NCBI GenBank assembly: GCA_963664225.1
Contig: OY760937.1
Location: 1,856,001 to 1,920,000 of the forward strand
Length of the DNA stretch: 64,000 nt
Direction of reading: 5' to 3'
DNA from: Verrucomicrobiia bacterium
GTDB taxonomy: Bacteria > Verrucomicrobiota > Verrucomicrobiia > Limisphaerales > UBA1319
Numbering within the stretch: the first letter of the stretch is position 1; each line of letters starts with the position of its first letter. The translations under genes were made by a program, and so were the position numbers. Positions 4,635-61,619 of the stretch are shown one piece after another. Under the pieces are notes generated by a model. That model saw only the letters and a list, made by a program, of their open reading frames with translations. It had not been told where the DNA came from and did no database searches.

Positions 4635-7600
4635 CTATTTGAAGAGGTTCTTCAAGGATTTGATGGCGTTGACGGGGTTATTGGTATCCGCCGCCGGGGC
4701 GTTGGTGCTCCCGGGAGCATTGGTTCCACGCCCGAGCAATCCACCAAGGATGTTCTGCACCGCATTGGTCGATTTCAGGCCGCCAACCAGGTTTGTTACC
4801 GTACCGAGGGTACTGCCCACCGTTCCCGCCACCGAAGACGGCAGTCCGGAAATGTTTTTGGCCAGAATTCCCGCAACCGCCAGCTTATCGATTTGCGCGT
4901 CGTATTTGCCGACGGTGCCACCAATTTTCACGAAAGGCGGCAATGCCACGAATGTGGCATTGGTGGGCGCGTCAGCCGGATAAAGATTGGATTTGCGGGC
5001 GATATTGCTGCTCAAGAGGAGGGTCACTGGCAGGTCCAGTGTGGAGTTGGTCAGCACAGAGGCCAAGGTCACCGTGCCGACGCTTTGGACCTGCAACGCC
5101 GTGCTTGTAAGCGCGAATTTCCGGACGTCCACCTTGCCCGCCCCGATCTGAGTTTGGGACTCAATACCTGTCACGGGTGAATCAAGAAGATCCGGCATTC
5201 GCAGCACGATCAGGACGCTCTTGAGCACCGTGTTCATCATGCCGGTGCTTTTGAGGGTGATGTTCGCGTTGGTCACCAACAGGGAAGTGGCGCCCGAGAG
5301 GTTCTTTTGCAAATTAGGTCCGGTAACCCCCGCACCTTTGATCTGGAATTTGGCCGTGACATCGCCCTTATATTGACCTGGCTGCCCTTTCATAAAGGAG
5401 TTGGCCAGGGGTTCGACCGGCATATTGTCAGCATTGAGGGACATATCGTAAACATAGCCCGGCACGCCAAGGTTCAACGCCACGGATGCATCCACCGGCG
5501 CGCCATTAAACGCCAACTGGAACGGCTTGATATCGACCTGATTTCCGTGGATTTTCACCGTGGTCACCAGATTGCTGATGACCGTTTCGCGCACGTACAA
5601 CTTTCCAATTTTCGCGTCCAAACTCATGTCAGCCACGGGCAGATTCATAGCTGCGGGTTCTTTTTCAGGTCCGGCCGCCGCAGGTGCCTGGGCAGGCGCG
5701 GGCGCGTTCGTTGAAGCGGCGCTGAATTGATCGTACCAGGGCGTCAAATCGAGCGCCTCGGAGGCGAGGGTAAACTGGCCGGAATAAGCGTTGGTCCTGG
5801 ACATGTCCATGCGGCCCTGCATTTGCACGCTATTGCTGGCGCGACTGGTTGGTTCCAAACTTACGAGCAGTTTTTTTAATTCGACGATGTTGGTGGCCAT
5901 GGACGCATCCAATTGGGCCGAGACGGCGAGCGGTTTGGTTTTCTCGGCACCTGTGCCGCCGCCCAACACCAGATTGGAAATTTTGACATCGCCCTGAACT
6001 GCGGATTGGGCCTTGGGATCATAGGTCAAAATAATTTTTGGCGAGCTGATCGCAATGGAGGTCAGAGTGCGCGGGGCCAGGGAGGCCGCCAGGAAGGGGC
6101 GCAGCGCGTTCTCGTTCATGTCCAGATTGGAAATGGTGATTTGAGCTGACTTTAACGATGAAGTATTCGTCGGCGCATTGGTGGCGGTATTGAGATCGAA
6201 ACTTCCGGAGAGGCTCATGCCGCCACCGGACTGATCGCCCTGGCGTGTGGCAAGAGTCAACCGGTTGACTCGGGCCTGATTTCCCTTGAGGTCCGCATCG
6301 AAATCCACAGCGACCTGATATTTATCCAGCGCGTAAGGCTCGTAGCGTCCTGTTAATTCGGACAGGGAGAACGATCCGGAATAGGTCTGACCACCGGATT
6401 TGCTGGTGAAGAGGCCATTGCCTTTGGCGGTGCCCTCGCTCAGCTTCAGACCCGCAACGGGATATTTCTTTAACAACTCGGCCAGTTTGCTTTCAAACGT
6501 GGCGCGCACGCTGTATTCGCCTGTTTTGATCTGGTAATTGATGGCGGCATCGACCATGGCCATCGGTTGGTCCGCCTCTGAAACCTCAACCTTGAATTTC
6601 TGTATCTCGGCCTTGTCCATGTCGCTCAGTTTTCCATTCACCTGCGCCTTGATAAGCCCCATCGACAGGGCGTTGGTTCCCATCCGCGCGGAGAATTGCC
6701 GCACTTGGGCCGTCATATCCATCGTCATCTGGCGTCCGTCCTGCTGGGAAAGAATCTGGCCGTTGGCTGAAACGATGCCTTTGGGCGCCATGTCTCCCGC
6801 CAGGAAACCCCAGTCGTTCAAATCGAGATTGGTCACCACAAGGCTGACCACCGATTCCTTGACGTTCGCGCTTTCATTGCCCCAGGAGAGCGAGAGCGGA
6901 CGATCCAATGCAAGTCGCAGCATGTCTCCGGCGGCAGCCTGCGTTTGCGAACGCCGGGCTGAAGCGTTCAATTGTTGAACGATGGCCTGCTGCTTGGAGA
7001 GATTGGCGTCCAACCGGTAATTCAAATCGAAATCCAGGAGAGGAGTCGCCTGCTTGTTCTGGATGATGCCGGCATTGGCGCCCGTCAGGCGACCGCTAAT
7101 GGCAAACACGTTGCCCTGCGAGGTGACATCCACGGTGTTGGTGGCGTTGACCACGGTGGTTCCGAAATCCCATCCGTGAGCGGCTCCGGCCAGATTGAGC
7201 ACCTGACGATCCAGGGCCAACAGGTCCACTTTCAACCGGCCTTCCTTTTTGGCCAGATCCATCGGACCGCTGATTTTTAACTGACCCAGTTTGACATCCC
7301 CTCGCTTGAATTGCAGCGCCAGTTGTTGAATTTCGGCGGGCGTGACCTGGCAATCCAAAACAGCGCCCAGATTCGCGGCCTCCTTGAACGCTCCATGGCC
7401 CTGTTCCACCTGTAATTGGGTAAGGCCGCTGATGGTCTCCGGCAGCAAATCCGCCGCCAGTTTGAAGTTATACGAGCCGTTGATTTTCGCCTGCAATCCA
7501 TCGTTCTCGACTGCGGGCTTGCCTGCGACGGGGGCGTGTTGCACTTCCACTTTCAGCCCCGCCGCCACGGTGAATTTCCCCGACTGGTTGTTTGCGGCCT

Positions 7601-9386: not shown

Positions 9387-12300
9387 TTATTTCGGGCCGA
9401 CAATTTCCCAGCCGGGCGCCAAATAGCGAGTGGGGGATAACGCTTGCCAAGTGCCTTGGAGATTCTTCATGGTCCAAATACCCACCTCGCCAGTTTGTTC
9501 ATTCTGCCAGATAATATCTGTGATGCCGTCGTTATTATAGTCGGCTGTGGCCGCCACCCGCCATTGCGACCCGGGATTTGACGGACTCAAATAGCGCCAC
9601 TGAACCCTGATAACGCCGTTCATATCCCATGCAATTAACGTGCCGTTTTGATGACGCCAGAGTATTTGCGAGTTGCCTTTTCCTTCAAAGTCTCCCGACC
9701 CAACAATGCGCCAGAGCGGATCGCCCGCATTAAATGGTGTGAGGTACTGGTAGAAGCCGTTCAGGCCATTCATAAACCAAGCCAGAATATCTCCATCTTC
9801 ATGCTGCCAAACAATTTCGGCTTTGCCATCCCGCGCCATGTTGGACGTCGCCACAATGCGCCATTGTTTGTCGTTCACCCGGGAAGGATTCAATTCCTTG
9901 AATGTGCCGTTTGTTCCGATCATGGACCACACACCCAGATAGCCATCATCGTGCTGCCAGATTATTTCGTATTTCCCATTGGCATCAATGTCGCCTGCAC
10001 CCACCATCTGCCATGTTGTCCCATTGATCGCGGCTGGATTCATGGACACTCTGGCCTTTTGCACGGAGCCGTTCATGAACCATGCCTGCAACTCGGTTCG
10101 GTTGTGCTGCCATAGAATCTCCGCTTTCTGGTCGCCTGTTACATCTCCCACCGCAACCATTTGCCAGTTTGGATCAAGTATTCGCGTGGGATTAAGGGCC
10201 TTGTAAATCCCCTGACCGTTTGTGACAACCCAGGACGCCAGCGATCCATCGCTGTGCTGAGCAACAATTTCTGCCTTGCCATCGCCATTGATGTCGCCTC
10301 CGCCCACAATCCGCCAGGAAGTGTTGAATTTTTCCAGAGTGAGGGGAACAAAGCAACCTTCCACCCCGTTCATCGTCCAGAATCCCAAAGCCCCCTGGCT
10401 GTGTTGCCAGAGAATTTCAGCTTTACCATCTCCATCAATATCCCCGGCACCGACAATCTTCCAATTCGTATCAAAAACACGGTCCGGTTTCAGGGAACCG
10501 AACTTCCATACGTTTTGGTTCACAAAACAAACTCCCACGCGACCGTCCGTGTTCTGCCATATGAGGTCCGCCTTGCCATCTTTATTGATATCACCGACGC
10601 CCCGCAAACGCCAGTTCGCATCTTGGGGAACATCCGTGTTGAGTGGGACGTAGGAACCTACCGTACCCGACATTATCCAAGCGGCCACAGAACCGTCACG
10701 GTGTTGGAAAACGATTTCCCTTTTCCCATCGCCATAAAGGTCTCCCGCCCCCACCATGCTCCAGTCCGCTTGCACAAACTGGGGCTGTAAGGCTGCATAT
10801 GCCCCGTTGGTATTGGTCATCATCCAAATGCCCAACTCACACTCCCGGTGCTGAAGCAGAATATCGGCATACCCGTCACCATTAAGGTCAAAGATCGGTG
10901 AAGAAGGCTTGGTGAAGACTGTTAGTTGCACATTGCGTATCGTGGTATCTCCACCACCACTGAACGTAACCGCAGCCGTGTAGATTGTGCCGCCAGACGA
11001 ACCGATCAGCGACTTGGCATTGTCGTTAATCGAGACGACGACATTGCCGGAGTTTTGACCGGTGGTTGGAGTGGCCGTTATCCAGTTCTTATCCGAGATG
11101 GCCGTCCAGTCCAAGGTCCCTCCACCGACATTGCTGACTGAATATGTTTTGCTTGACTGAGAGAATGGTCCACCTTGATTTCCGCTCGAGGCCAGTCCGT
11201 CTGAAGGCGATACACCTAGATGACTAACAGCCTTGAACGTCACTTGAACGCTATGGTTGTCCTGAATGTTGGAAAGAGTGTATCCGATGCCGCCATTCTG
11301 GACCACGACGCCATCCACAAGCCATTGACTCACGATATAGTTGGCATTCGGACTGCCATTAAAACTCACACCAGCACCACTGTTGACAATTTGGGCCGTG
11401 TTCGGGCTAACGTTACCGTTTGGACCAGCACTGGGAGTCACCGCATAGGTTACCACCACGGCTTTAAAAGTTACTTGGACTGTGTGGTTTGCGATAATAT
11501 CGCTAAGAGTATAGGTTGTGCTGCCGTTTAGATTGGCCACCGGAATGCCGTCCAATAGCCATTGGTCCACCACGTAGTTAGAGTTGAGAATTGGTCTGGC
11601 TACGAATGTTTGGTCCTCGCCAGGTCCTTTACTAATAACGCCACTTGGATCAACGCTGCCGCCACTTCCGGCTGATATGTCCAGCGTGTAATGATCAGGT
11701 GTCCATCTTACTGAGTAATAAACGGTACTTGTTGCGTCTCCATTTTGATCGCCTTGAAAAAGTCCACTAGCACCGGGTCGATATTGGACTTTTATTGTGT
11801 AATTAGCTGTTTGAACGAGTGAACTTGTTATGCTTAAATCAACGACTCTATCTCCTATTGCGGTGTAGGGGACAGAAACTCCTGCGGTAATGGGCTGACT
11901 CAATCCGCCACCGGTGATTGTTGCCTGGAGAAAACCCGTAGTTATCGGCGTCAGATTCACCCATACTTCAACCCCTAAAGTAGAACCAACCACCTTACCA
12001 GAACCCGATGGCGGAGAGATTCTTACCGAGTTTATAAGCGGTAGAGAATAACCAATGGAGACCGTATTTGGGCTTGACCCCCCAATATTATTATTTTCAA
12101 TCGCTTCTGCAACCTCCTGATTACAGTCAATGAATGCTGTAACGTAATAGTTTCCAGTCGGGACTGTGGTTGGGATGTCAATAATTTCTGAGTATGTTTT
12201 GCTCGCATTAGCAGCCAGGGTAGTCATTGGCCCATAGTATGCGATCATATAGGTTGTTCCATAGGGAGTGCTAGACAAATATATTTTTGTGGAGTGAGCT

Positions 12301-13058
12301 AATGTAGCGTCTGCCGTGCCTTTGTTTTTCTCTGTCCATCCCACCTGAATCGAACCTCCAGGAGTAACACTCACTGGAGAAACAGTTAGCGGTTCAACTA
12401 TCGTTAAATCAGGCTGACCATCACCAACAATTTGAGTTCTTCGGATCGGCCGGTATGCACTCAGACTGCTATAAGACCATAATTTGCGCTGGGCATGATG
12501 AGGAGTTTGCTCCATTGACCTTATGCCGGAACTTTCATAGTTCAAGAACATTATTATATGGCCGAGAGAGGAGGAGTTTATTGCGTCGCCCTGCAAGAGT
12601 GAGACAGAAGCCGCACTACCGATATTTCCCAGGCTAGACCAGTAAGGACCATTAATTCCGCTTTCAAATGTAGCAGTTGTATTGCGCTGAGGGAGTTTCC
12701 AACAGATACTAACGAACCCTGAGCAATCATTTCCGTAGCCTTTGTTTCCACTACCTGTGATTGGCATATAGCCAGCAAATTCCTGCCAATTATCCTGAGG
12801 ATTAGTTTGGCCGTAAGGGATTCCGGTGTAGGTGACTCCCTTTGTGTAAGTGTATCGCACAGCGACACCGCCCTCGGTATACTCGTAATTGTAAAACGTG
12901 TTATTGGGAGCCCATGTGGAATCGATCATTTGGTCGGCGATAGACTTGATTGAAGACCGAGTGATGCTGCCCCATGTATCGCCGTTCCACGCCCTTCCGG
13001 TGCTTGGCAAACAAAGGAGCAGAGTGACCAAAAGTAGTGATTTTACTTTCATAATCAT
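9387..13058 (-). CDS. Secreted multidomain protein: NlpC/P60-like catalytic domain, CARDB, Ig/InlB-B-like repeats, BACON, FG-GAP-like repeats
   Basis: Signal peptide; GNDCSGFVS and GHIIMF motifs; PDL...E.IENNN CARDB; about 10 W.IVG.GD..GDGKAEI.WQH.DG repeats. Confidence 0.8.
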   Translation of the reverse strand: MIMKVKSLLLVTLLLCLPSTGRAWNGDTWGSITRSSIKSIADQMIDSTWAPNNTFYNYEYTEGGVAVRYTYTKGVTYTGIPYGQTNPQDNWQEFAGYMPITGSGNKGYGNDCSGFVSICWKLPQRNTTATFESGINGPYWSSLGNIGSAASVSLLQGDAINSSSLGHIIMFLNYESSGIRSMEQTPHHAQRKLWSYSSLSAYRPIRRTQIVGDGQPDLTIVEPLTVSPVSVTPGGSIQVGWTEKNKGTADATLAHSTKIYLSSTPYGTTYMIAYYGPMTTLAANASKTYSEIIDIPTTVPTGNYYVTAFIDCNQEVAEAIENNNIGGSSPNTVSIGYSLPLINSVRISPPSGSGKVVGSTLGVEVWVNLTPITTGFLQATITGGGLSQPITAGVSVPYTAIGDRVVDLSITSSLVQTANYTIKVQYRPGASGLFQGDQNGDATSTVYYSVRWTPDHYTLDISAGSGGSVDPSGVISKGPGEDQTFVARPILNSNYVVDQWLLDGIPVANLNGSTTYTLSDIIANHTVQVTFKAVVVTYAVTPSAGPNGNVSPNTAQIVNSGAGVSFNGSPNANYIVSQWLVDGVVVQNGGIGYTLSNIQDNHSVQVTFKAVSHLGVSPSDGLASSGNQGGPFSQSSKTYSVSNVGGGTLDWTAISDKNWITATPTTGQNSGNVVVSINDNAKSLIGSSGGTIYTAAVTFSGGGDTTIRNVQLTVFTKPSSPIFDLNGDGYADILLQHRECELGIWMMTNTNGAYAALQPQFVQADWSMVGAGDLYGDGKREIVFQHRDGSVAAWIMSGTVGSYVPLNTDVPQDANWRLRGVGDINKDGKADLIWQNTDGRVGVCFVNQNVWKFGSLKPDRVFDTNWKIVGAGDIDGDGKAEILWQHSQGALGFWTMNGVEGCFVPLTLEKFNTSWRIVGGGDINGDGKAEIVAQHSDGSLASWVVTNGQGIYKALNPTRILDPNWQMVAVGDVTGDQKAEILWQHNRTELQAWFMNGSVQKARVSMNPAAINGTTWQMVGAGDIDANGKYEIIWQHDDGYLGVWSMIGTNGTFKELNPSRVNDKQWRIVATSNMARDGKAEIVWQHEDGDILAWFMNGLNGFYQYLTPFNAGDPLWRIVGSGDFEGKGNSQILWRHQNGTLIAWDMNGVIRVQWRYLSPSNPGSQWRVAATADYNNDGITDIIWQNEQTGEVGIWTMKNLQGTWQALSPTRYLAPGWEIVGPK

Positions 13059-13073
13059 TATTGGCTGCAGTCG

Positions 13074-14258
13074 TCATTGTCCGAAAACGTTAAGTTTCGC
13101 TTGATCCTGTTGAGGCAGGAACTGAACTATGGTCCCGCATGGCATCACAGTGACCAGTTTTGTTGTCCAAATTGCATAGTCATTTTCAGGAATCGTCGTG
13201 GTTCCTTCTTTCTCACCGGCAACATTGAAGGTAAGCACCTCAAGAACAACAGATTTCTCCACGAGCCTTTCGGTTTGGATATAGAAACGCTGGTCCTGAT
13301 CCTCGCCTATAAATGTGGCAGCGACAACACCTTCCAAGGGAATATTCATTTTCAAAATGGTCTGTTGACGCGCCTGGTCTAGCTCCTGAACAGCAAATCC
13401 CTGATCTTTTACGAGATTGATCGAATAAATGGAACCCCTTGTGCCATGAACGCCATTACTAGTCCGTTTAATCGAGGTGTCGGCAGCTGTGAGCGATCCA
13501 CTCTCAAGATTAGCGATCAGGACATCACTGTTCGCTGCATCTGCGAAATATATAGCACCGTTGGCTACATGAAAGTAACCTCTTGTGGTAATATCTGCTG
13601 GATTAAGTTTCAATGAGCTTTGAAGCGCGCCTTGTGCATCATATTGATATAGAGTAAGTTTGATCTGATCAAACACGTAAACGCGGCTTTTTTGATCCAC
13701 TGCAATATCGTTAATTTCGATTCCTGCCAGGTTGATGTTCCGCAGATAAGTTCCATCCTTGGAATAGATAACGATTCGATGATTCACCAAGTCTGCCACA
13801 AGAACATTTCCGTTTGCATCGACAGAGTACGACTCTGGCCCAGTTGGAGTTTCACCATTTTCTCGCCTTAAACCGACTTCGCCCTCCCCCTGACCATATT
13901 TTACGACTTTATGCACGCTCGCTTCCTGCGTGGTTGTCCGTGGAACAGCCGGGATCCTTGCAAAACGCGGCGCGGCCGGTCTAATGCGTTTAGGGCTAGC
14001 TTCCGCAGATGGCGACGCCTCCAAGAAGGAGAGGGCTACCCTATGCTTTGCGGAGTGGACCCAAACTGACCAAGCGCAGGTGATCATAAGTAACACTATA
14101 ATAAGCAAAGGGATTTTCCGGTTCAGGCGTGACTCACTGAGCCACTTTAAGTATCCCTTCACGCATTTTTCGACGATAGTTAAGGATCTGCGAAATATGC
14201 CTCCGTTATAGATCATTTTATATTTTCCTCTGCGCCCTTGTTTTCTCCACGACAACAT
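13074..14258 (-). CDS. Membrane-anchored or secreted NHL-like beta-propeller protein (start uncertain)
   Basis: Hydrophobic N-terminal segment; GPESYSVDANGNVLVADLVNHRI and DIAVDQKSRVYVFD blades. Confidence 0.7.
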   Translation of the reverse strand: MLSWRKQGRRGKYKMIYNGGIFRRSLTIVEKCVKGYLKWLSESRLNRKIPLLIIVLLMITCAWSVWVHSAKHRVALSFLEASPSAEASPKRIRPAAPRFARIPAVPRTTTQEASVHKVVKYGQGEGEVGLRRENGETPTGPESYSVDANGNVLVADLVNHRIVIYSKDGTYLRNINLAGIEINDIAVDQKSRVYVFDQIKLTLYQYDAQGALQSSLKLNPADITTRGYFHVANGAIYFADAANSDVLIANLESGSLTAADTSIKRTSNGVHGTRGSIYSINLVKDQGFAVQELDQARQQTILKMNIPLEGVVAATFIGEDQDQRFYIQTERLVEKSVVLEVLTFNVAGEKEGTTTIPENDYAIWTTKLVTVMPCGTIVQFLPQQDQAKLNVFGQ

Positions 14259-21901: not shown

Positions 21902-23011
21902 TTATTCGCCCATGCCATTGAGGATATCTTCCATCAACGCCAGAACGGTCGCCTCGGAAATCTCCGGCGTTCCGTAACTGCGGGCGACACTTTCAGCATA
22001 ATTGCCCCGGCCAATCAGATCCGCGGAAGCGGCTTGACCGATGATTTTGGAATCGCTCAGGCGGATGGCTGTGGCCTGGATGTCGGGCACCGAATAGGTT
22101 CTGTCCCCTGAGATACCCTGCACCTGGATGTTCTTCGAGGAGATCAACACCTCGATGGCGACATCGGAGACTTTCTTCAGAACCTCGCGGTCCTTGCGCG
22201 CCTGGTCACTATCCGTTGAGAGCTTGTATGGGCTGAGGGCCTGGCTATCCGCTATCTGGGTGGCGGTGCGTTGGTCGGCCAGGGACACACCGGCCATGCG
22301 CAGAGGGCGGCCGAAAATGCGTTCCACATCGCGCACCGTCTGGCGATCGGCCAGCGTCATATCCTTGCGCTCCTGAATGCGGTAGGTGTTTTCGTTGGAG
22401 GCCTTCTGAGTCCTGAATACAACCCCGTTCTTGTTGGTGCGCAGAGTGCCATCGGCGGCCTTGGCATCCGCACTGACCTTGACCTCGCTGGTGACCGCCA
22501 CAGTGCCGGAGGCGTTATCGCCGGAGATGGAGCCTTTGCTGCTCTCGGTCTTCTCGGTGCGGGCGGTGAGTTTCATTCCGGCCTGCTCATCGACCAACTC
22601 ACGGTTCACGGCGATGACCATGCGCGGGCTGCCCATTTTCGCATAGTTCGTGCGGAAACGATCGATCACGGCGCGGGCCTGTTGCGGTGTGACCAGAACA
22701 ACCTGGCTGCCGTAGAGCCGCTGGTCTTCGACCGGTTGGACCGGCACGTAATTGGTGCTGAGCACCTGATTGGTCACGGCCACGAAATTGGTCGTCGTGG
22801 TCGTGGTGGTGACGATCACCGGGTTGGTGGACACGGAAACATTCGTGCTGACGACCGCCTGCACGGGAACCGGCTGGCCCTGAACAATGGTGGATTGAAC
22901 GGGCGGCTGCTCCAATGGCGGCTTGGCCATTTGCACATGGGGTTCCGGCATGGCGGCTTGTGCCGCGATGATGGATGCCATCAACGAGCCTAAAAGGAAA
23001 GTTGTTTTCAT
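21902..23011 (-). CDS. Exported hypothetical protein, possibly CsgG/LpoB-like fold, with Thr-rich N-terminal region
   Basis: Signal peptide, poly-Thr tract, PRMVIAVNRELVD and DIQATAIRLSDSKIIGQA segments. Confidence 0.65.
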   Translation of the reverse strand: MKTTFLLGSLMASIIAAQAAMPEPHVQMAKPPLEQPPVQSTIVQGQPVPVQAVVSTNVSVSTNPVIVTTTTTTTNFVAVTNQVLSTNYVPVQPVEDQRLYGSQVVLVTPQQARAVIDRFRTNYAKMGSPRMVIAVNRELVDEQAGMKLTARTEKTESSKGSISGDNASGTVAVTSEVKVSADAKAADGTLRTNKNGVVFRTQKASNENTYRIQERKDMTLADRQTVRDVERIFGRPLRMAGVSLADQRTATQIADSQALSPYKLSTDSDQARKDREVLKKVSDVAIEVLISSKNIQVQGISGDRTYSVPDIQATAIRLSDSKIIGQAASADLIGRGNYAESVARSYGTPEISEATVLALMEDILNGMGE

Positions 23012-23050
23012 ATTTCGCGCCCGCAATCACGCGGGCAATAAATTTTTCGT

Positions 23051-33730: not shown

Positions 33731-33897
33731 ACGGTGTCTCATTCGTACTTAGCGGCGTCCCGGTAGGGCGGAGGCGGAAGTTTTTTCTGGATTCAAAATC
33801 GTTCAGCCCCTAGAAAAGGTTCAAGAAATCAATCCTTTGTGCCGGGACGGGCTTTGCCGCTGTGTGCGGTCGCGTTCATCAGCATGAGGATCAACCA

Positions 33898-36065: not shown

Positions 36066-36195
36066 AAGGGCCAACGCCCATGTTACCAGTCATCACAACA
36101 TGGCAATGATTCCTGTATTTGACTTTAATATATTTGTGGCACGTATGATTCGTAGGTCATAATATCCATACATCTGGTTGGTCGAATGTTTATTT

Positions 36196-36786
36196 ATGAT
36201 CTCTCGCAATACGAAGATTGTTTTAGGTTCTTCTGCCTGCGTTATCGTATTGCTGGTGGCTCTCGTCGCAGCCTGGCTTCACCACTTGGGTAAGGTGCAC
36301 CGACACTGCATCAAAATCACGGGAATGGCATTCAAGATGTATGCCACCGATCACAATGGCACATTCCCTTACCATACAAACGGTTTTGGGGATGCGCTGT
36401 TGCTGCTGGTAAAAGAACATCATGTGGACCGCGTGACCTATCTCTGTGGACCCGGGGACGATGGGCATGTACTTACCAACGCTCTAGCTCAGGGGCTGGA
36501 TGTGCCAGAGGAACAGTGCAGCCGGGTTTACGTCCAGGGATTGTCCGAAACAAATGATCCAATGCTCTGCATCCTGTTTGATCGTCGCTCAGCGAAGGGA
36601 GGGGACCATAATTACGGCTTTGGAAAACCGCTTCGGGAAGTTTGCATGCTAGACGGATCCATGCTTTCTATTGGGGATGAGCGATGGCCCGAGTTCAGTC
36701 GCCAGCAGGTCGAGTTGCTGGTCACCGCCGGATTCAAACACGAGAAAGCATTGGAATATTATCCAGCAGCGGCCCAGTCAAAATAG
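36196..36786 (+). CDS. Prepilin-associated (DUF1559/H-X9-DG-like) protein lacking the N-methylation motif
   Basis: TM helix then HCIKITGMAFKMYATDH..FP; variant H...MLDGS tail. Confidence 0.6.
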   Translation: MISRNTKIVLGSSACVIVLLVALVAAWLHHLGKVHRHCIKITGMAFKMYATDHNGTFPYHTNGFGDALLLLVKEHHVDRVTYLCGPGDDGHVLTNALAQGLDVPEEQCSRVYVQGLSETNDPMLCILFDRRSAKGGDHNYGFGKPLREVCMLDGSMLSIGDERWPEFSRQQVELLVTAGFKHEKALEYYPAAAQSK

Positions 36787-36831
36787 GTAATAAGACGTTC
36801 AATAAAGCTGAAGCAACCACTCGAAGCTAAA

Positions 36832-37479
36832 ATGAAGCTGACACAAACCAAATCAATCAGAGCGTTTACCAGAACCGAGCTTCTCGTCACCATCGCCTGT
36901 CTGGTGGTTATTTTGGCGGCAATTATTTTACCCGCCGTGGCAAAACGGACGGCCCACTCAGCAAGGATAGGTTGCCTAAATAATATTAAAAACATTGGAC
37001 TGGCATTTCGAATCTGGGCCACAGACAACCACGATCTCTTTCCAATGCAGGTGTCCACAAACGATGGGGGGACGAAGGAGTTGATCCCCAGTGGGGCGGT
37101 CTTCCCTCATTTTCTTGCCATGTCCAACGAACTAAGCACCCCGAAGATCCTGCTTTGTCCCAATGACAACAGGCCTGCGGCGACAAATTTCATGTCAGAC
37201 CTGACCGACACAAATATCAGCTACTTCTTAAACCTGGACGCGGTGGAAAATCCCTCCGACATGTTGGCCGGTGACCGCAACCTTACAAACAGGCCCCCGG
37301 CAGGCAGCCGGCTGGTTCCTATCACAAAAAACTCCATTCTCAGCTGGACCGAGGAAATGCATTTTGGGAAAGGAAACCTTGTTTTCGGAGACGGTCACGT
37401 TGCTCAATTCGCTAATGGCAGCACTGGCACTGTCGTCAACATCCCCGAAAGTGTCACGAATCGGCTGGCGGTTCCGTAG
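36832..37479 (+). CDS. Prepilin-type protein with H-X9-DG domain
   Basis: AFTRTELLVTI, CLNNIKNIGLAFRIWATD, MHFGKGNLVFGDGHV. Confidence 0.88.
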   Translation: MKLTQTKSIRAFTRTELLVTIACLVVILAAIILPAVAKRTAHSARIGCLNNIKNIGLAFRIWATDNHDLFPMQVSTNDGGTKELIPSGAVFPHFLAMSNELSTPKILLCPNDNRPAATNFMSDLTDTNISYFLNLDAVENPSDMLAGDRNLTNRPPAGSRLVPITKNSILSWTEEMHFGKGNLVFGDGHVAQFANGSTGTVVNIPESVTNRLAVP

Positions 37480-39442: not shown

Positions 39443-39722
39443 ATCGACGGGCTCCAGAGGCAGGAAAATCACGGGCCACGCACGCGCTTCTGCGACTGCA
39501 TTGGCACGATCCCAGATTGCTGTGTGGGTACAGAAGATCTTCGGCACAATGTGTCTTCGTTTCCCGTTTGGAGGGCCGTTACTCGCCGGGCCATTCCTGA
39601 TCTTGTCCCCATCTCTCAAGTTTATTGACGCTCTGCCGATAAGAGGGCTGTGATGAACCGAAGGATTGTGTATTGAAAAGATTATTGCGAATGTTTTATC
39701 TTTCAGCCGATCATTTAATCCA

Positions 39723-41042
39723 ATGAAGACTATCACACGCGCTCACTGGTCACGGGTTTTCTTAACAGTGACGCTGATAGGTGCTTCAGTCCTTGCATTT
39801 CCACAATCCACCCTGTCCCAGGAGTTGTATAGCCATGGCAATCCCACGGATTTGGAGCAATACATGCTCGAACTGATCAACCGGGCGCGACAGGATCCGA
39901 CGGCAGAGGGAATCTTTCTCGATACTCTGAACACCTATTACACGATCGATGCGCGTTACAGAAAGCCTGCATTCTTTACCAATCTGCGTCAGGAGTTCCA
40001 ATCCTATCCAGTGGCCCAGCCCCTGCCATTCAATGCCAGCCTCATCCAGGCAGCCCGGGCCCATGCCAGCGATATGATCGCCCGCAAGTATTTTGCCCAT
40101 GTGACGCCCGAGGGAAAATATCCCTGGGATCGCGCCGCGGACGCGGGATATGACTCGACCTTTGTCGGGGAAAACATGCACAGCGTGGGCGCCACCAGCA
40201 GCGATAACGTGCTGTATGAACATTTTTCTCTGATGGTGGATTATGACAACCTGGCCCAAGCCACGAGTCCCCTTGGCCATCGGCTTAACATCCTAAATCC
40301 AATCTACAGTGAAATAGGTGTGGGGATCATTGGCACACTATCCAACGGAAAAACCGTTCAGGACTTTGGGGATGCGGGACATTCTTTTGTCCTGGGCGTG
40401 GTTTACAACGACCTAAATCATAATGGTTTTTATGATCCAGGCGAAGGATTGGCCGGTGCAACCATCAACCTCTCCATTGGACATCATTGCGCGATCACCT
40501 CGTCGTCCGGTGGATACGCCATCCCGCTGGATCCAGAGGAAACACGAACCGATACGGTGCTACTCACCGTGCCTGCGGAAGATGGTTGGACTGATGAAAT
40601 TGCAGCGCAGGACACTGCGTTCAGGGCGCAATTTACCGCGACCAACAAGGCGCCGGGGACCGTCATCGTTTCCGCTTCAGGAGGCGCCCTGACCAATCCA
40701 TTGGCCCGGATGGCGGCGATGACAAGACTCATTCAACTGGATTATAAACTCAAAGGCACCGATGGCTGGTATTTTAACCGCACATTGCTTGTGGGGCGGA
40801 ACACAAAAGTCGATTTTAATTCCGCGGCACAGTGCATTCCCAAGAAACTCAATGTCCCGATCATGGTTTCGAATAACGCCATTCGGTTGAGCTGGCAGGG
40901 AGGCACGGCGCCGTATCAGATACAAAAGCGCGCATCGATAACGCAGACAAACTGGCAAAATGTGGGAGTGCCGGTCACCGAGACCTCCTGCGTGTTGTCG
41001 AACAACGAATCGGCCTGTTTTTACCGGGTGATCTCGAATTAA
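39723..41042 (+). CDS. Secreted CAP (SCP) domain protein with C-terminal 'FYR' domain
   Basis: EQYMLELINRAR, AARAHASDM...YFAH, GEN, GHRLNIL...EIGVG; tail LSW..G..PYQIQ...W...FYRV. Confidence 0.85.
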   Translation: MKTITRAHWSRVFLTVTLIGASVLAFPQSTLSQELYSHGNPTDLEQYMLELINRARQDPTAEGIFLDTLNTYYTIDARYRKPAFFTNLRQEFQSYPVAQPLPFNASLIQAARAHASDMIARKYFAHVTPEGKYPWDRAADAGYDSTFVGENMHSVGATSSDNVLYEHFSLMVDYDNLAQATSPLGHRLNILNPIYSEIGVGIIGTLSNGKTVQDFGDAGHSFVLGVVYNDLNHNGFYDPGEGLAGATINLSIGHHCAITSSSGGYAIPLDPEETRTDTVLLTVPAEDGWTDEIAAQDTAFRAQFTATNKAPGTVIVSASGGALTNPLARMAAMTRLIQLDYKLKGTDGWYFNRTLLVGRNTKVDFNSAAQCIPKKLNVPIMVSNNAIRLSWQGGTAPYQIQKRASITQTNWQNVGVPVTETSCVLSNNESACFYRVISN

Positions 41043-46218: not shown

Positions 46219-46252
46219 ACTATTTTTATAAAAACTGCTACAATAATGACAA

Positions 46253-48427: not shown

Positions 48428-48431
48428 TGTC

Positions 48432-48466
48432 AAAAAAAAGGAGGCTAGATTTCAACTCCAGCCTCC
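48432..48466 (-). terminator. Intrinsic-terminator-like hairpin between the beta-barrel gene and wzc
   Basis: Minus strand GGAGGCTGGA-GTTGAAA-TCTAGCCTCC-T8. Confidence 0.7.
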
Positions 48467-48488
48467 CTCGCATTTGGTTTAAATAGGC

Positions 48489-49763: not shown

Positions 49764-49818
49764 ATCTTTATAAATTAACTAGTTTGGCCCGAGATCAGCT
49801 TTTTGAATCTTGGTTCCC

Positions 49819-49847
49819 TTTCTACGTTGGTTCCAAGACCTTGTCAA
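49819..49847 (-). promoter_or_regulatory. sigma70-type promoter for the beta-barrel/EPS genes
   Basis: Minus strand TTGACA-17 nt-TAGAAA. Confidence 0.55.
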
Positions 49848-49880
49848 ATACAAACGTTGTTTTTCTGTAGAATATTTCAG

Positions 49881-51656
49881 TTACCGATTTCCGTTCCGCC
49901 ACCGTTCCCAATCCGACAGAAACACTTGATCCGGCAAGACATCCGACCAGGCATTGCGCAAAGGGAACCCCACTGGCACACTTCCCTTAAGCAGGCTCTC
50001 CAAAACGAACTGGCCCCATGATCGGTCATCTCCTTTGACCAATCGTGTCAAAAAGCGTTCATCCAAAGTTAAATGCGTTAAATATAGTCCTTTGATCGGC
50101 TTTTGTAAGTCGTTTATGCTGAAGAAGTCGGGCTTTATTCTCATCGTCAGCCAAATGGTTTCCCGACGCCCATACCAGGCCACCGCCCAGGGCATGTCGC
50201 TCATCATCACTTCATTGGTCTCCAGATACCCCGCCGTCTTTTGAATCAGCCAGGGATAATACGGTGGATAGCTGATCGGATAGGTCTTTGGCGGCAGCAG
50301 CGTCAGAGCCATCGGCGCGCAAAGAATTATCCCGGCCAGACTGAGAATCCAAGTCCGAGCGCTCGGAAAGGGCAATTCCAAGCTGTCCAGGAGCACCATG
50401 AACAAAGCCGCGCCGAACATGATGACCAGGGGTCCGAAGATCGCCAATAAATTTTCCGAACGCACCTCGACCACGCCGTCAGTCAGCCATGTTTGAGTCA
50501 AGGCCTGCACCACGACAAAAATCAGGAGGCTGAACACCAGAAAATAGCGCAACCGCGATAAACCCGCCCGTTTAAAGGGCATCATCAGCCCCACCAGGAA
50601 CAACGCGGACACCCAGCTTCCGCAAATATTTGCCAGTTCGAGACGAATGATATGGCGGGCATTGCCAACAAGTTTGCGCAACCCGTCATCGACCAGGCTC
50701 ACATTCAGCAGCGCATCGTCAATCTTAAGGGACCGTTCAATCGTCGCCTCCTGCAAACCAGGCATTCCCTGATTGACCGCATAGCCGGCCGTGCCAAAAA
50801 GTGTGCCGCTGATCTGATAATTGCGCGCCAGCCACGGGGTCATCACAAGCGCGCAGGCCAGCAAGGCCAGGGGCAACGTTACCGGGCGCTGCTTTCCACC
50901 AAAGACCGCCAGAAACAACACGGCGGGGAGCAACAACCATACCATCGAATACTGCGTCATGGCCGCAGTTCCAATCAGCGAGCCCACCGTTATCGCCATA
51001 ACGGCGAACCATGTGGTCGAATGCGCCTGCTCCTCTCTGACTGCGGATTCAATGCGGGTCAAACATTCGACAAGCGCCAGAACCAGCACAATCAGCAACA
51101 TCGTTGGCAAACCAGAAATGCTGAAGTGCCAGTAGAGGCTCGTGCAGACGAACAAAATGGCCGAAAACCAGGCCACGCTCCGGTCAAACAGGCGTAGGGA
51201 GAGTCGAAAGAGCATCCATGCGGCCAGAGCAAACCATAATTGGTTGAACAAAGCGATGTAAAACTCCGGCTGGTATCGGATCAACTGCTGGTTTTGAGGG
51301 ATCACCCATTGCATGGGGATGATTTTCATCCAGCCTGCCAGGAGATAAGGATAGACGGGCGGATAGGTCAAATCCGGGACCGCTGTCTTCAGCACATTGG
51401 GATTGCCCCCCTGCTGCTTCTCGAGCATGCCGATGACCAATGGACGCACGCAATCCGTCACGAAGCCCTTGCCTTCGGAAATGTTTCGGGCCACCTGTGA
51501 CATGTCCATGGCTTCGGGGGCGGTGAAATTCCGGAATTCCCGCAAATCATAGATCGCCGCCATGGCGAGCAGGGCCAGGAATACCGCAGCCAATTTGATG
51601 ATCCGCACGCCTTCGCCCTCTTCAAATTTGTGAATTATTTCTTGTAATGGAAGCAT
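49881..51656 (-). CDS. GT-C fold polytopic glycosyltransferase (GT39/ArnT-like)
   Basis: About 11-13 TM helices; EAMDMSQVARNISEGKGF first loop, PPVYPYLLA, PWLARNY. Confidence 0.8.
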   Translation of the reverse strand: MLPLQEIIHKFEEGEGVRIIKLAAVFLALLAMAAIYDLREFRNFTAPEAMDMSQVARNISEGKGFVTDCVRPLVIGMLEKQQGGNPNVLKTAVPDLTYPPVYPYLLAGWMKIIPMQWVIPQNQQLIRYQPEFYIALFNQLWFALAAWMLFRLSLRLFDRSVAWFSAILFVCTSLYWHFSISGLPTMLLIVLVLALVECLTRIESAVREEQAHSTTWFAVMAITVGSLIGTAAMTQYSMVWLLLPAVLFLAVFGGKQRPVTLPLALLACALVMTPWLARNYQISGTLFGTAGYAVNQGMPGLQEATIERSLKIDDALLNVSLVDDGLRKLVGNARHIIRLELANICGSWVSALFLVGLMMPFKRAGLSRLRYFLVFSLLIFVVVQALTQTWLTDGVVEVRSENLLAIFGPLVIMFGAALFMVLLDSLELPFPSARTWILSLAGIILCAPMALTLLPPKTYPISYPPYYPWLIQKTAGYLETNEVMMSDMPWAVAWYGRRETIWLTMRIKPDFFSINDLQKPIKGLYLTHLTLDERFLTRLVKGDDRSWGQFVLESLLKGSVPVGFPLRNAWSDVLPDQVFLSDWERWRNGNR

Positions 51657-51657
51657 A

Positions 51658-53031: not shown

Positions 53032-53032
53032 G

Positions 53033-57053: not shown

Positions 57054-57580
57054 TGGAAGACCGTGTCGCATTCGGCGGCGGGTATTATTTGATTTGCCTG
57101 GCCCTGCTGATGGTGGCACGGGGCATGGATTTTTTAAGCACATGGATTGCGACGCCCAACCTGGTGCTGGAAGCCAACCCAATTGCCAAGAAATTGGGCT
57201 GGAAGCTGGGGGTCGTGATCAATGTCGTTCTGTGCGCCACATTCGCCTTGTGGCCGCTGCCGGCGATCGTCATCGCCACCACGAGCATTCTGGTGGCCGC
57301 CCGCAATTTTCAATCGGCATGGCTGATGCGCACGATGGGCGAGGAGCAATATCGCGGTTTCATGGCGGAGCAGATGTCCTATACCCCGTTCGGCCTTTAC
57401 CTGTTCTGTCTGGGATTCCAAACCGTCCTTTACCTGGTCATCGGTCTGGCGCTTGTTTTTTTCGACGATTCACAACTCGTGCCCTTTGCGGTGGGCATGG
57501 GCATGGTGGCCTATGCCATGGCCGTGGCCTTTTACAGCCTGCTGGCGGCGCGCCGCCATCGCCATCCACCCGAATGTTAG
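57053..57580 (+). CDS. Hypothetical membrane protein (DUF5658-like)
   Basis: DFLSTW...EANPI motif, several TM helices, overlaps the hisI stop. Confidence 0.7.
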   Translation: MEDRVAFGGGYYLICLALLMVARGMDFLSTWIATPNLVLEANPIAKKLGWKLGVVINVVLCATFALWPLPAIVIATTSILVAARNFQSAWLMRTMGEEQYRGFMAEQMSYTPFGLYLFCLGFQTVLYLVIGLALVFFDDSQLVPFAVGMGMVAYAMAVAFYSLLAARRHRHPPEC

Positions 57581-57608
57581 CCGCTTTCACTTATTTCTCC
57601 TGATTGCC

Positions 57609-59111
57609 ATGTATTACCCAAGCCCGGAACAATTCGCCCAATTCGCCACGCAGGGAAATCTCATCCCGGTCACGCGCAAATTGCTGGCCGATCTGGAAAC
57701 CCCGCTCTCGGCCTACCACAAAATTCGCGGTCAGGGCGAATCCTTCCTGTTCGAGTCCGTGGAAGGCGGGGAACACCTCGGGCGCTTTTCGTTCGTGGGG
57801 AGCAATCCGCGCGCGGTGGTGCGCCAGACCGGGAACGTGGTTGAGGTGCTGTCCAAAGGGATGGTTTTGGAAAGCGCCGTGGTGGGCCGCGACATTAAGG
57901 ACGGACTGGAACTGGTGGAGCGCCTGCTCAAACGCTACCGGCCGGTCACGGTGCCGGGGCTGCCCCGGTTCACGGGCGGCGCCATCGGGTTCATCGGGTA
58001 CGAATTCATTCACGACGTGGAGCCTGTGGTCCCCCGCCCCGCGCAGGATGATCTTAAAACCCCGGTGCTTTATTATTTGATCGCGGATGAATTGCTGGTG
58101 TTCGATCGCGTGGCCCAGACGCTGACCATCATCGTCAACGCCCTCGTGGATGAGGCCACTCCGGCGGAAACCGCTTATGCGATGGCGACGGCGCGGATTG
58201 ACCATATTGTGTCGCTGCTGCGGCGTCCGCTCGAGTCGCGCCCGGTGAGCCTGCCCGAGGAAACGCCCGATTTGCCGGTGGTTTCCAATGTGAGCCGGGA
58301 GAAATTCATCGAAAACGTCAAGGCCGCCAAGAAATACATCACGGCCGGGGATATCATCCAGGTGGTGGGTTCGCAGCGGTTCTCGACCCCGATTCACGCG
58401 ACGCCCCTGGATGTCTATCGCGCCGCGCGCACGATCAATCCCTCGCCCTACATGTTTCTGCTGGAACTGGACCGGTTCTCGCTGGTGGGGGCGTCACCGG
58501 AGATTCATGTTCGGTGCGAAGAAAACGCGGTGGAAATCCGGCCCATTGCGGGGACGCGGGCCCGCGGCAAAACGTCCGAGGAAGATCTGGCGCTCGAAAG
58601 GGAGTTGCTGGCCGATCCCAAGGAACGAGCCGAGCATGTGATGCTGGTGGACCTGGCGCGCAACGACCTGGGCCGGGTGTGCGATTACGGCACGGTGCAG
58701 GTGAAGGACTTGATGATCATTGAGCGCTACAGTCATGTGATGCATATCGTCTCCCAGGTGGTGGGGCATTTGCAGAATGGGCATACGCCTTATGACCTGA
58801 TGCGCGCGACTTTTCCGGCGGGCACGCTTTCCGGCGCGCCAAAAATCCGCGCGATGCAGATCATCTCGGAACTGGAGAAGACGCAGCGCGGGCCTTATGG
58901 CGGGTGCGTGGGCTATTTTTCGTTCAACGGCAATCTGGACTGCTGCATCACGATCCGCACGGCGCTGCTCAAGGATGGCATGGCCTATGTGCAGGCGGGC
59001 GGCGGGTGGGTCAACGATTCCGATCCGCAGGCGGAGTATCAGGAGACGGTGAATAAGTCGAAGTCGATGCTCAAGGCGGTGGCGATGGCGGAGAGTTTTG
59101 CAAGGCATTAA
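57609..59111 (+). CDS. trpE: Anthranilate synthase component I
   Basis: FLFESVEGGE, NPSPYM, KERAEHVMLVDLARND, FPAGTLSGAPKIRAM; start ATG 57609. Confidence 0.96.
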   Translation: MYYPSPEQFAQFATQGNLIPVTRKLLADLETPLSAYHKIRGQGESFLFESVEGGEHLGRFSFVGSNPRAVVRQTGNVVEVLSKGMVLESAVVGRDIKDGLELVERLLKRYRPVTVPGLPRFTGGAIGFIGYEFIHDVEPVVPRPAQDDLKTPVLYYLIADELLVFDRVAQTLTIIVNALVDEATPAETAYAMATARIDHIVSLLRRPLESRPVSLPEETPDLPVVSNVSREKFIENVKAAKKYITAGDIIQVVGSQRFSTPIHATPLDVYRAARTINPSPYMFLLELDRFSLVGASPEIHVRCEENAVEIRPIAGTRARGKTSEEDLALERELLADPKERAEHVMLVDLARNDLGRVCDYGTVQVKDLMIIERYSHVMHIVSQVVGHLQNGHTPYDLMRATFPAGTLSGAPKIRAMQIISELEKTQRGPYGGCVGYFSFNGNLDCCITIRTALLKDGMAYVQAGGGWVNDSDPQAEYQETVNKSKSMLKAVAMAESFARH

Positions 59112-59129
59112 AGGGAGGCGGGGGAAAAA

Positions 59130-59600: not shown

Positions 59601-59604
59601 TTGG

Positions 59605-59637
59605 AAAAGGGGCGCATTCGTGAAGGAATGCGCCCCT
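59605..59637 (-). terminator. Intrinsic terminator of the secreted-protein gene
   Basis: GGGGCGCATTC-6 nt-GAATGCGCCCC followed by TTTT on the minus strand. Confidence 0.8.
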
Positions 59638-59666
59638 GTGTTGTGGATTAACGGAAGTCGAACCGT

Positions 59667-61619
59667 TTAAGGTAAAGGCTCGACTTTGGTCGCGGTGCCC
59701 GTGTTGGCGGGTTTGGTGGTGTCGGTCGTGTCGGTGGCAGTGACGGTGAAGTTGCCTTCGGATCCGAATGTGACGCTAAAGGTGTGGGATCCGCCCACCA
59801 GGACTGCTTCTCCCGGAAGATAGGCCGTGGCGTCGTCACTGGTAAGGGTCACGGTGTTGTTTGGCGCGAGTTTGATGATGTGCCAGGTGTCATCGACCGC
59901 GTTGACAACGACGTCGAAGGGCACGCCGACGTTCTGCGTTGTCGGGGTGCCGATCTTGCCTGTGGCCGTTCCGGGCGCGTTGGTTTCGCCGGGCATCAGG
60001 ACCTGCAGTTTGCTGTAAGCCCGTTTAATCATCCGGTAGTAGCCCTGGCTTGCACCTGTCAAGTCGCCACGGCTTATCAACAGCTTCTTGCCGTTAAATC
60101 CAACAAATGGAGCGGCTCCGCTTTCGTTCCAGCCGTTCGTAGCGATGATTGAGTTCGTTTGCAATGCGAAGCCGGCGTCGGGAAGCGTCCATCCGATCCA
60201 CCAGAGGCTGTCAGTGGATATTAGTTGAATACTACCAGAGGTGGCGGCTGCCATCTCCCAGAGGTTGGTGTTGAAGGTTGAATCCGCCATGAAGTTATCG
60301 TCGATATTCGAGGTGAAACCCTGGAGTTTGACGTCGGAGATGATGGCGCTGAGTCCGCGATTGGTCATTTCCTGCGGTTTGGCTCCCAGGTAATAGTATA
60401 AGGGGAGAGCGGCTTTGGCGGCGTCCACATAACCGGCGAGTTTATCGGCGGAGAATTCGAAGTTAGTAGTGGAACCGCCCGGGCTGGTCATGGTGACATT
60501 GGTGTCATTGACGAAGCTGAGCGTCCAGGTGCCGATGGGGCCATTGGTTTCGGTCAGGATGGCGAGCGGAGAGGAGTAGTAGGTAGCGTTGCCGTCTGGA
60601 ATGGAATTGGTCTTCCAGCGGAATGTATATAGGGCGGAACCGTCGGCCTTGTTCTGCAATTCCATGAAAATGCAGTTGGTTTGGTCCCAGTCAGGGGAGC
60701 TGCCTGTGCCAATGGTTCCGAGGCCCACGGCGGGATCGTAGGGCACCGGAATTAAATAGCTATGGATTTCGAAGTTGGGATTGTTTGTGCCGGGATAGGA
60801 TTTGACCGTGAACGAATAAGTGACCGGCGTGCTGCCTTTGCCCACCCAGGAGTATTCGGGATTGACGGTTCTGAAGTTCTGGCGGTCATACTGGCCGGTG
60901 CCTTCGGCAGTCAAATTGAGACCTTTGGCAGGTTTGGTCAGGCTCAAGGTGGGCGGGGCCGGTGGCGGCTCATTGGTGGAGGGTTCCAGGTAGATGTTAT
61001 CGACGTTGAACATCACGGTATTCGTATAGGCGCCACCCGACCACATGTAGATGTAGTAACCGACGACGAGGTCCAGTCCCACTGCGGATTGATCGATGGG
61101 GAATGACAGATGTGTCCAGTTCGTGCTCGAAGCCGGTATATTGTAGTCGGCGAGTTTGATCTGTTTCCAATCGATTCCAGTCTTATATACCAGGCCGATC
61201 TGGAGCCCTCCAAAGTTGTCATTCTTTGTGGGGGATGTGGTGGGATCGAGCTTGAAGTCCAGCGTCATGTTCTTGTAGTTGCCAACGCAGTTAATGATTG
61301 TGGCCGCATCCCAGCCCCCACCGTCGTGGAGGGTGCCGAAGGTCATGAACTGGTCCTGAGAATCGCCCGTGAACGGGAACGCGTATCTGAGGGAGCCGGA
61401 ATTGGGATCGCCCAGCGCGTCCAGACTTGGATCCTGGGTGAGCATTGTTCCATCGTCCTGCATGCCCCATCCATTCCAGGTGATCCATGATCCCTTGCCG
61501 TAATCAAAGGTCTTGGGGTTTGCCCAGGTCTGAGCCAGTGCGGTACCCGCGGAAGCAGCCAGGGCGAGGCCCATGACGACTGACGGGAGCCATCTTGATA
61601 GTTTTGATTTTTGTTTCAT
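59667..61619 (-). CDS. Secreted beta-rich hypothetical protein with internal 'YYR' domain and terminal Ig-like domain
   Basis: Signal peptide ending ALA-Q; CBM-like N-domain ending VDNIYL; start ATG 61619. Confidence 0.8.
   Translation of the reverse strand: MKQKSKLSRWLPSVVMGLALAASAGTALAQTWANPKTFDYGKGSWITWNGWGMQDDGTMLTQDPSLDALGDPNSGSLRYAFPFTGDSQDQFMTFGTLHDGGGWDAATIINCVGNYKNMTLDFKLDPTTSPTKNDNFGGLQIGLVYKTGIDWKQIKLADYNIPASSTNWTHLSFPIDQSAVGLDLVVGYYIYMWSGGAYTNTVMFNVDNIYLEPSTNEPPPAPPTLSLTKPAKGLNLTAEGTGQYDRQNFRTVNPEYSWVGKGSTPVTYSFTVKSYPGTNNPNFEIHSYLIPVPYDPAVGLGTIGTGSSPDWDQTNCIFMELQNKADGSALYTFRWKTNSIPDGNATYYSSPLAILTETNGPIGTWTLSFVNDTNVTMTSPGGSTTNFEFSADKLAGYVDAAKAALPLYYYLGAKPQEMTNRGLSAIISDVKLQGFTSNIDDNFMADSTFNTNLWEMAAATSGSIQLISTDSLWWIGWTLPDAGFALQTNSIIATNGWNESGAAPFVGFNGKKLLISRGDLTGASQGYYRMIKRAYSKLQVLMPGETNAPGTATGKIGTPTTQNVGVPFDVVVNAVDDTWHIIKLAPNNTVTLTSDDATAYLPGEAVLVGGSHTFSVTFGSEGNFTVTATDTTDTTKPANTGTATKVEPLP

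Follow-up and report, generated by a model that had tools for sequence, protein, structure and literature searches.

The window analysed here is a stretch of 64,000 nucleotides (C1:1856001-1920000) from a Verrucomicrobiia bacterium of the order Limisphaerales, whose genome (G000) is a single contig of 5.78 Mb and 96% complete. The window encodes an AsmA/DUF748-like protein and further exported proteins, a membrane glycosyltransferase of the GT-C type and a number of cytoplasmic proteins (Table 1), and its exported proteins are rich in the dipeptide Thr-Asn (TN). An earlier note on this DNA had described the enrichment from hand counts of TN and of the reversed pair NT in individual proteins, all of which were reproduced on recount. 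Taken together, the 21 exported proteins of the window hold 72 TN vs. 35.4 expected, and the 16 cytoplasmic proteins hold 10 vs. 12.0, with one TN each in the sigma54 regulator and DegT and three each in Hcp and the large sensor. The second of two small exported proteins (36832), which is pilin-like by eye without a Pfam match, carries five TN and no NT.

Genes were called with a purpose-written hexamer gene caller (4037 genes, 82% coding), and compartments were assigned with our own hydropathy-based classifier and signal-peptide heuristic, whose errors should blur the contrast between exported and cytoplasmic proteins rather than generate it. Expected TN counts were calculated per protein as T x N / length, after exported proteins had been trimmed of their first 40 residues; in the following, a/b stands for observed/expected TN counts and O/E for their ratio. 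The 1147 exported proteins of the genome contain 3481 TN vs. 1897 expected (O/E 1.83, bootstrap 95% interval 1.74-1.93), compared to an O/E of 1.05 (0.98-1.12) in the 1852 cytoplasmic proteins, in agreement with the low cytoplasmic counts of the earlier note. Among signal-peptide proteins, TN ranks first of 400 dipeptides by over-representation (z 32, next dipeptide z 15.7). All other pairs ending in Asn stay at or below 1.09 in exported proteins, and all other pairs starting with Thr at or below 1.11. The excess also persists after the composition correction that had been set as a check, with an O/E of 1.79 when 30-residue local composition serves as the baseline. It amounts to about 1580 sites, and at least one TN without a following Pro is found in a fraction of 0.665 of the predicted exported proteins. 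The TN excess is real, strong and genome-wide.

Table 1. Features of the window and their TN content (positions within the window; expected counts from protein composition).
Feature	Coordinates	Strand	Observation
SBBP/DUF7948 exported protein	1354..4434	-	7 TN, 2 NT; 3.0 TN expected
AsmA/DUF748-like exported protein, 1177 aa	4635..8168	-	17 TN, 5 NT; 5.2 TN expected
AsmA C-terminal low-confidence tail, residues 1149-1163	4680..4724	-	three TN; two columns TN in 22/30 and 18/30 orthologs
CARDB/FG-GAP exported protein	9387..13058	-	low-GC N-terminal part 1 TN vs. 5.0 expected, C-terminal part 5 vs. 1.9; local exception
Low-GC beta-propeller protein	13074..14258	-	0 TN, 1.3 expected; numbers too low to inform
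Exported protein, no Pfam family	21902..23026	-	7 TN, 1 NT; 1.5 TN expected
Gfo/Idh/MocA oxidoreductase, twin-arginine leader (seen in sequence)	33862..35265	+	0 TN
Two small exported proteins	36178..37479	+	3 TN vs. 0.3 expected, 5 TN vs. 1.7 expected
CAP-domain exported protein	39666..41042	+	4 TN vs. 2.5 expected
GT-C membrane glycosyltransferase (PMT_2)	49881..51656	-	between sigma54 two-component pair and BBP2/Wzc/Wza/FHA genes
TrpE, cytoplasmic control	57453..59111	+	0 TN
Secreted protein, no Pfam family	59667..61754	-	14 TN, 4 NT; 5.2 TN expected

The O/E of exported proteins exceeds 1.2 in 55 of the 58 100-kb windows of the genome, lies between 1.6 and 2.0 in every one of four helix/beta composition quartiles, and is 1.71 in proteins shorter than 500 amino acids (aa). 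A repeat or domain artefact was ruled out by an O/E of 1.90 in regions without paralog or internal repeat and of 1.88 in 523 singleton proteins. A codon or DNA-level motif was ruled out by off-frame translations (0.78-1.06) and by the codon choice within TN, which is the same in exported and cytoplasmic genes. These controls bear on the idea that TN is a structural or neutral preference without any reader, be it turn or bulge geometry, domain families or codon-pair bias. Asn favours turns, and the O/E falls to 1.43 once the 100 proteins with the largest excess are removed; yet the same excess is present in singletons and helix-rich proteins, and none is seen off-frame or in cytoplasmic genes.

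A low-GC exported segment had been taken in the earlier note as an internal control separating native from acquired genes. Locally this is correct, with residues 25-720 of the CARDB/FG-GAP protein depleted of TN and the remainder enriched (Table 1), but it failed as a general rule. Low GC as a sign of foreign, motif-free genes was rejected, as exported genes with low GC at third codon positions (GC3) show an O/E of 2.0-2.2; the highest-GC3 bin gives 1.25 and atypical high-GC3 genes 20/16.0 (n = 14 only). The low-GC segment within 9387-14258 (GC3 0.45) is joined in frame to the higher-GC FG-GAP part, which suggests a recent domain swap.

Clustering of TN in exposed linkers, also proposed earlier, was borne out in part. 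In the AlphaFold model of AsmA, 11 TN sites are placed in loops, in turns or in segments of low confidence; the others touch strands or helices. When the model was combined with 28 aligned sequences, TN was densest in the floppy, low-confidence linkers (O/E 5.0), but predicted helices (2.8) and strands (1.5; 1.46 unrounded) were enriched as well, in addition to insertions (2.5) and loops (1.8). The strong excess in disordered segments also argues against turn geometry, although several AsmA columns do hold Asn preceded by either Thr or Ser. AsmA orthologs were found in 33 of the 41 genomes of the order, and 27 of the 30 retrieved have an O/E above 1.4. Sites turn over among them: 272 TN are distributed over 90 columns, 52 of which are singletons, a few are near-fixed and some exchange with SN. 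Two ortholog families show covariation of Thr and Asn as one unit. In AsmA (28 of 30 sequences) the pair occurs 220 times vs. 175.9 from column frequencies and ranks first of 285 pairs, and in the periplasmic domains of TMEM260-like proteins (56 of 71 loci) it occurs 199 times vs. 136.2 and ranks first of 333. In a mostly-membrane GT-C family it ranks 53rd of 368. Since common ancestry inflates such counts, we give more weight to the ranks than to the sizes.

The distribution of the excess was followed in 31 related genomes, from each of which 20-240 kb were sampled; five of them gave too little sequence. DNA-pattern counts as a proxy for TN across genomes varied too much between samples (ratios 0.6-1.5) and were dropped. 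At 71 loci of the order, the flanking exported proteins gave 270/139.6 (1.93) and the flanking cytoplasmic proteins 0.84. Clear positives within the order are G234 (35/17.5), G227 (16/4.7) and G232 (29/18.0), and G149, from another class, is clearly positive as well (69/30.2, 2.29). The excess is weak in G023 (11/6.8), in G104 (28/18.6, with NT high as well) and in G005 (34/27.1), and G125 gave 6/5.8. Sixteen genomes pooled as negative gave 287/308.0 (0.93; 255 exported proteins), a pool that was picked after the counts had been seen. One of its members, G208, belongs to the order itself, and at its AsmA locus two large exported proteins show no TN excess either. A less circular grouping, the 12 sampled genomes without a strong match to the Pfam family PF11028, gave 118/128.2. 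The TN excess is lineage-limited: it is present in the source genome, in most sampled members of the order and, outside the order, clearly in G149.

G005 had at first appeared positive (17/8.3), and was rejected as such with more sequence, its excess sitting in pilin-like genes. Pilin-like cassette proteins are TN-rich in G005 (L020:15468-17600; 14 vs. 5.2 for the set) and in G153 (L161:10558-14050), both without a general excess, and one pilin-like cassette protein of 1162 aa has 12 TN and 3 NT. In these two genomes, pilin-like proteins may be the only substrates that carry the motif. The submitter labels of several loci with clear Limisphaerales-type genes (Akkermansia, Bifidobacteriaceae, Chitinophaga, Gemmatimonadetes) look unreliable.

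Separated by export class, the O/E is 1.87 for Sec-type, 1.60 for lipoprotein-like and 1.50 for pilin-like proteins, whereas proteins of the twin-arginine translocation (Tat) type show no excess (0.81, n = 38, to 0.91, n = 79). The earlier remark that not every exported protein shows the motif, made for the Gfo/Idh/MocA oxidoreductase, held true, and the absence of TN from this protein with its twin-arginine leader agrees with the result for the Tat class. In polytopic proteins, predicted outside loops reach 1.66 and inside loops 1.19. Sensor kinases gave 14/10.0 outside vs. 16/21.9 inside, Ser/Thr kinases 9/3.0 outside vs. 1/1.1 inside, and the cytoplasmic loops of P-type ATPases 4/9.4. Because of the lineage and Tat contrasts, a preference without a reader is largely refuted, and we regard it as very improbable. 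We infer that a reader of TN exists; the Tat contrast, together with the sites inside folded elements, suggests that it would meet its substrates as unfolded chains.

The preference for the pair is strict and depends on context. In the favoured context, exported proteins show 2.95 for TN, compared to 1.04 for SN, 0.89 for TD and 0.83 for TQ; without the context filter SN is at 0.87, and NT is also below 1. Pro directly after Asn contributes 0% of the excess (TNP 1.36 in exported vs. 1.55 in cytoplasmic proteins), and TN-x-[KRDE] is at 0.86. The first position after Asn prefers A, I, L, S, V and T and the second T, V, A, L, P and I, and small uncharged residues are favoured upstream, giving the working motif small/hydrophobic-small/hydrophobic-T-N-[A,I,L,S,V,T; not P]-[T,V,A,L,P,I; not K,R,D,E]. 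TN without a Ser or Thr at the second position after Asn is enriched (TN[^P][^ST] 1.79) but N-x-T without a leading Thr is not ([^T]N[^P]T 1.05; [^T]N[^P]S 0.91); therefore, the TN motif is not N-X-S/T. D/E-x-N-x-S/T is at 0.90. The enrichment, lineage and context tests thereby support the earlier proposal of selection for a lineage-specific motif in exported proteins that is distinct from N-X-S/T. The selective preference is pair-specific, Sec-side and lineage-limited, with enzyme-like exclusions.

We propose that TN, which is under selection as a pair in the Sec-exported proteins of this order, would act as acceptor signal for general protein glycosylation in the periplasm. The enzyme would be a membrane GT-C, most likely a TMEM260-like protein, that adds a lipid-carried sugar to the Thr while the unfolded chain exits the translocon. 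That TN marks glycosylation, in either linkage, seems probable by analogy with Bacteroidota and because GT-C genes are present. TN as acceptor signal with O-linkage on Thr and the TMEM260-like protein as the lead enzyme falls just short of an even chance in our judgement.

Alternatively, TN could be read by a non-sugar periplasmic factor, either through a phospho-form, a cross-link or Asn chemistry, or as a binding site for a chaperone, protease or sorting factor acting on newly exported chains. The evidence argues for a reader and not for its chemistry, and the motif distribution is matched by no GT-C. In addition, an F[YF]R motif stands within the final 15 residues of 71 exported proteins of the source genome. 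The final 70 residues of these proteins are 3.5-fold enriched in TN and represent a candidate C-terminal sorting domain. Along exported proteins in general, however, the excess is spread over the whole length (1.6-2.1 in all position bins), unlike a sorting signal, and all bacterial precedents for short motifs that we came across in exported proteins are glycosylation sites. We consider a non-sugar reader unlikely.

Under the preferred glycosylation proposal, the lead candidate is a TMEM260-like gene of the source genome (C1:1197690-1201538) with a PF11028 GT-C module and tetratricopeptide repeats (TPRs). Its profile matches the human structure (PDB 9RQL) with an E-value of 1.8e-39. PF11028 was detected in 41 of 41 genomes of the order and 72 of 201 genomes of the phylum, and the gene is present in each TN-positive genome. 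D66 and D654 are invariant in 13 of 13 sequences and align with the human D52 and D441 motifs, the D441 stretch being a weak match. At the loci of the order, an ECF (extracytoplasmic function) sigma gene precedes the TMEM260-like gene in 38 of 71 cases, and a grpE-like gene follows in 27 and a dnaJ-like gene in 24. In a quick, preliminary tree of 26 rows, end branches are long (1.2-2.8) for the copies of G153, G208, G080, G197, G005 and G125 and short (0.2-0.6) for those of the order, of G149 and of six further genomes outside the order. The TN counts of the long-branch genomes sum to 209/212.6, and those of the six further genomes to 44/28.6. This pattern supports the proposal weakly, as the grouping was made after the fact, related genomes do not count as independent, thin sampling makes branches longer and other proteins of G208 are diverged too.

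An RsmE-like gene also follows at TMEM260-like loci of the order (L181-L251; L142:1737-6538), where neighbours were named by sequence recognition. In G149 (L145:6844-13187), a sugar transferase and two putatively exosortase- and EpsI-like genes, judged from genome homologs, precede the TMEM260-like gene. A second TMEM260-like paralog, without the acidic DSGE motif, lies beside a glycosyltransferase family 4 gene in the source genome (C1:751860-755726, L141:3860-7726) and in G208 (L154:9636-14766) and is possibly a non-catalytic partner. It was set aside as a candidate enzyme; a full-length match was found in G208 alone among five genomes tested. No relatives of the TMEM260-like protein were found in viral contigs. 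Among 14 control genomes, PF11028 matched in Bacteroides thetaiotaomicron only, which fits the idea of this family as the missing Bacteroidota transferase.

Several observations weigh against the proposed O-glycosylation system. The TMEM260-like gene is not sufficient for a TN excess, as G153 (71/74.0), G208 (47/49.4), G080 (26/31.5) and G197 (25/24.8) carry it without one, and no enzyme column parted positive from negative genomes convincingly. Ser is usually accepted by O-glycosylating enzymes, yet SN is not enriched here, and the human TMEM260 sequon is unlike TN. The order members G215 (7/7.5) and G236 (23/35.1) are low in random samples, with enriched AsmA orthologs. No excess was seen in RND periplasmic loops (29/24.9), PEP-CTERM-like proteins (7/11.5) or barrel-like proteins (6/16.6). 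Beyond the second predicted membrane helix of 67 proteins, where an inside location is expected, the O/E is 1.86, which we tentatively put down to topology miscalls. Finally, the modification itself is putative, and so are the glycan, its linkage and the enzyme.

The Asn could also be the carrier. TN would then be an N-glycosylation sequon read by a GT-C outside the STT3 family, such as the one encoded in the window (49881-51656), with the Thr at -1 replacing the hydroxyl at +2. The loss of the excess with Pro after Asn resembles oligosaccharyltransferase (OST) sequons, TN-x-T reaches 2.99, and the strict preference for Thr over Ser recalls that of OSTs, which prefer Thr. The window GT-C, one of four PMT_2 genes in the source genome, is modelled confidently (predicted local distance difference test, pLDDT, 92) with a predicted GT-C fold and C-terminal periplasmic domain. 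AglB/STT3 are its top Foldseek matches over the whole length. Its family, with Q54, D487, P489 and W494 invariant, was detected in 36 of the 41 genomes of the order and in 69 of 201 across the phylum, and is strongly diverged in the negative G208. On the other hand, AglB/STT3, ArnT and Pmt are tied in the structure comparison (Z 19-22; AglB Z 20.8, root mean square deviation 4.5, 456 residues aligned; ArnT Z 19.8, 449 aligned). The WWD motif is absent, with DMPW and S-G-L-x-T at places judged equivalent by eye, and the second loop lacks an acidic pair. The gene is also present in the negatives G153, G174, G180, G123 and G080, and its profile gave no match to PDB sequences. STT3 (PF02516) was not found in the source genome (0/1; 96% complete, controls matched), nor the PglB core (PF21436) in the source genome and four positive relatives (0/5; controls matched). 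The second position after Asn prefers T, V and I, not S, which suggests a requirement for shape, not for a hydroxyl. We regard this N-linked alternative as distinctly unlikely, and rank the window GT-C as the second candidate enzyme. It lies in one run (45206-54295) together with a sigma54 two-component pair, a BBP2 barrel, Wzc, Wza and an FHA protein, the GT-C itself being uncharacterised.

Other membrane enzymes were set aside. A TIGR03663-like gene was not found in the positive G149 and found in many negatives, a YfhO-like gene is present in the negatives G208, G080 and G197, and a Wzy_C-like gene, in five of five genomes, does not discriminate. TMTC (PF08409) had no match in five genomes, though control genomes gave none either. 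Profiling of GT-C genes against the enrichment, as suggested in the earlier note, thus placed the TMEM260-like gene in all positive genomes, but no enzyme matches the motif distribution cleanly.

In its widest form, the proposal is that the order glycosylates most Sec-exported proteins at a previously undescribed two-residue T-N sequon. Its boldest version has the sugar Asn-linked by a non-STT3 GT-C; in a milder one, the TMEM260-like protein would be a general bacterial O-transferase with lineage-dependent sequons, T-N here and D-S/T in Bacteroidota. We hold this claim tentatively, at somewhat below even chances. With TN other than TNP in two-thirds of the exported proteins, the reader would reach the larger part of the cell envelope in bacteria that are abundant in soil and freshwater, with scattered lineages elsewhere. 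If true, bacterial TMEM260 homologs would gain a substrate and the two-residue sequon could act as a very short glycotag; an Asn linkage by a GT-C outside the STT3 family would be a new route to N-glycosylation. To our knowledge, few sequence-defined bacterial glycosylation signals are known. Our literature search found no TN sequon and no Verrucomicrobiota glycoproteome, most subscription papers and supplements with possible glycosite lists lying outside it. The accessible part of a review of bacterial O-glycosylation contains neither a TN sequon nor a mention of Verrucomicrobia, and that of a glycoproteomics preprint does not mention Verrucomicrobia.

The TN motif works like a glycosylation sequon but belongs to neither of the two known sequon systems. 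As in N-glycosylation by STT3, PglB and AglB, the motif contains Asn, Pro is disfavoured directly after it, and the proteins are extracytoplasmic; in contrast, the sequons of these enzymes (N-X-S/T; D/E-X-N-X-S/T in Campylobacter) are not enriched and no STT3-family gene was found. The related PVC (Planctomycetes-Verrucomicrobia-Chlamydiae) superphylum includes Ca. Kuenenia. There, O-glycosylation at GT/S, likewise a two-residue attachment motif, is described for a surface layer protein (bioRxiv 10.1101/2020.12.03.409086, accessible part), whereas G[TS] is at 1.04 here. Human TMEM260 is described, in the accessible parts of the sources, as an O-mannosyltransferase that modifies Thr in extended chains before folding, tolerates Ser and has as its sequon a long Pro/Gly signature of IPT domains (PMC10214176, bioRxiv 10.64898/2026.03.17.711096, 10.64898/2026.09.21.753134). 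Its action on extended, unfolded chains matches the Sec-not-Tat pattern of TN, and the homolog in the source genome looks intact from its sequence (GT-C module, equivalents of D52 and D441, TPRs). The sequon differs, however, and some relatives that lack a TN excess carry the homolog too. The nearest analogue is the general O-glycosylation system of Bacteroidota, which has a mannose-linked core glycan. There the motif D-S/T-A/L/V/I/M/T, with Ser slightly preferred, is enriched in noncytoplasmic proteins and glycosylated; the accessible text describes it as the only exception among O-glycosylation systems in being sequence-defined, its transferase undiscovered (PMC12871550). The T-N motif differs in lacking an acidic residue, in not accepting Ser as a substitute and in being known from sequence alone, and D[ST]hydrophobic is at 0.90 in exported proteins here. 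In both systems, a short linear motif followed by hydrophobic residues occurs above chance in the noncytoplasmic proteins of one lineage, in the majority of its members though not in each; the TMEM260-like family is our candidate transferase here.

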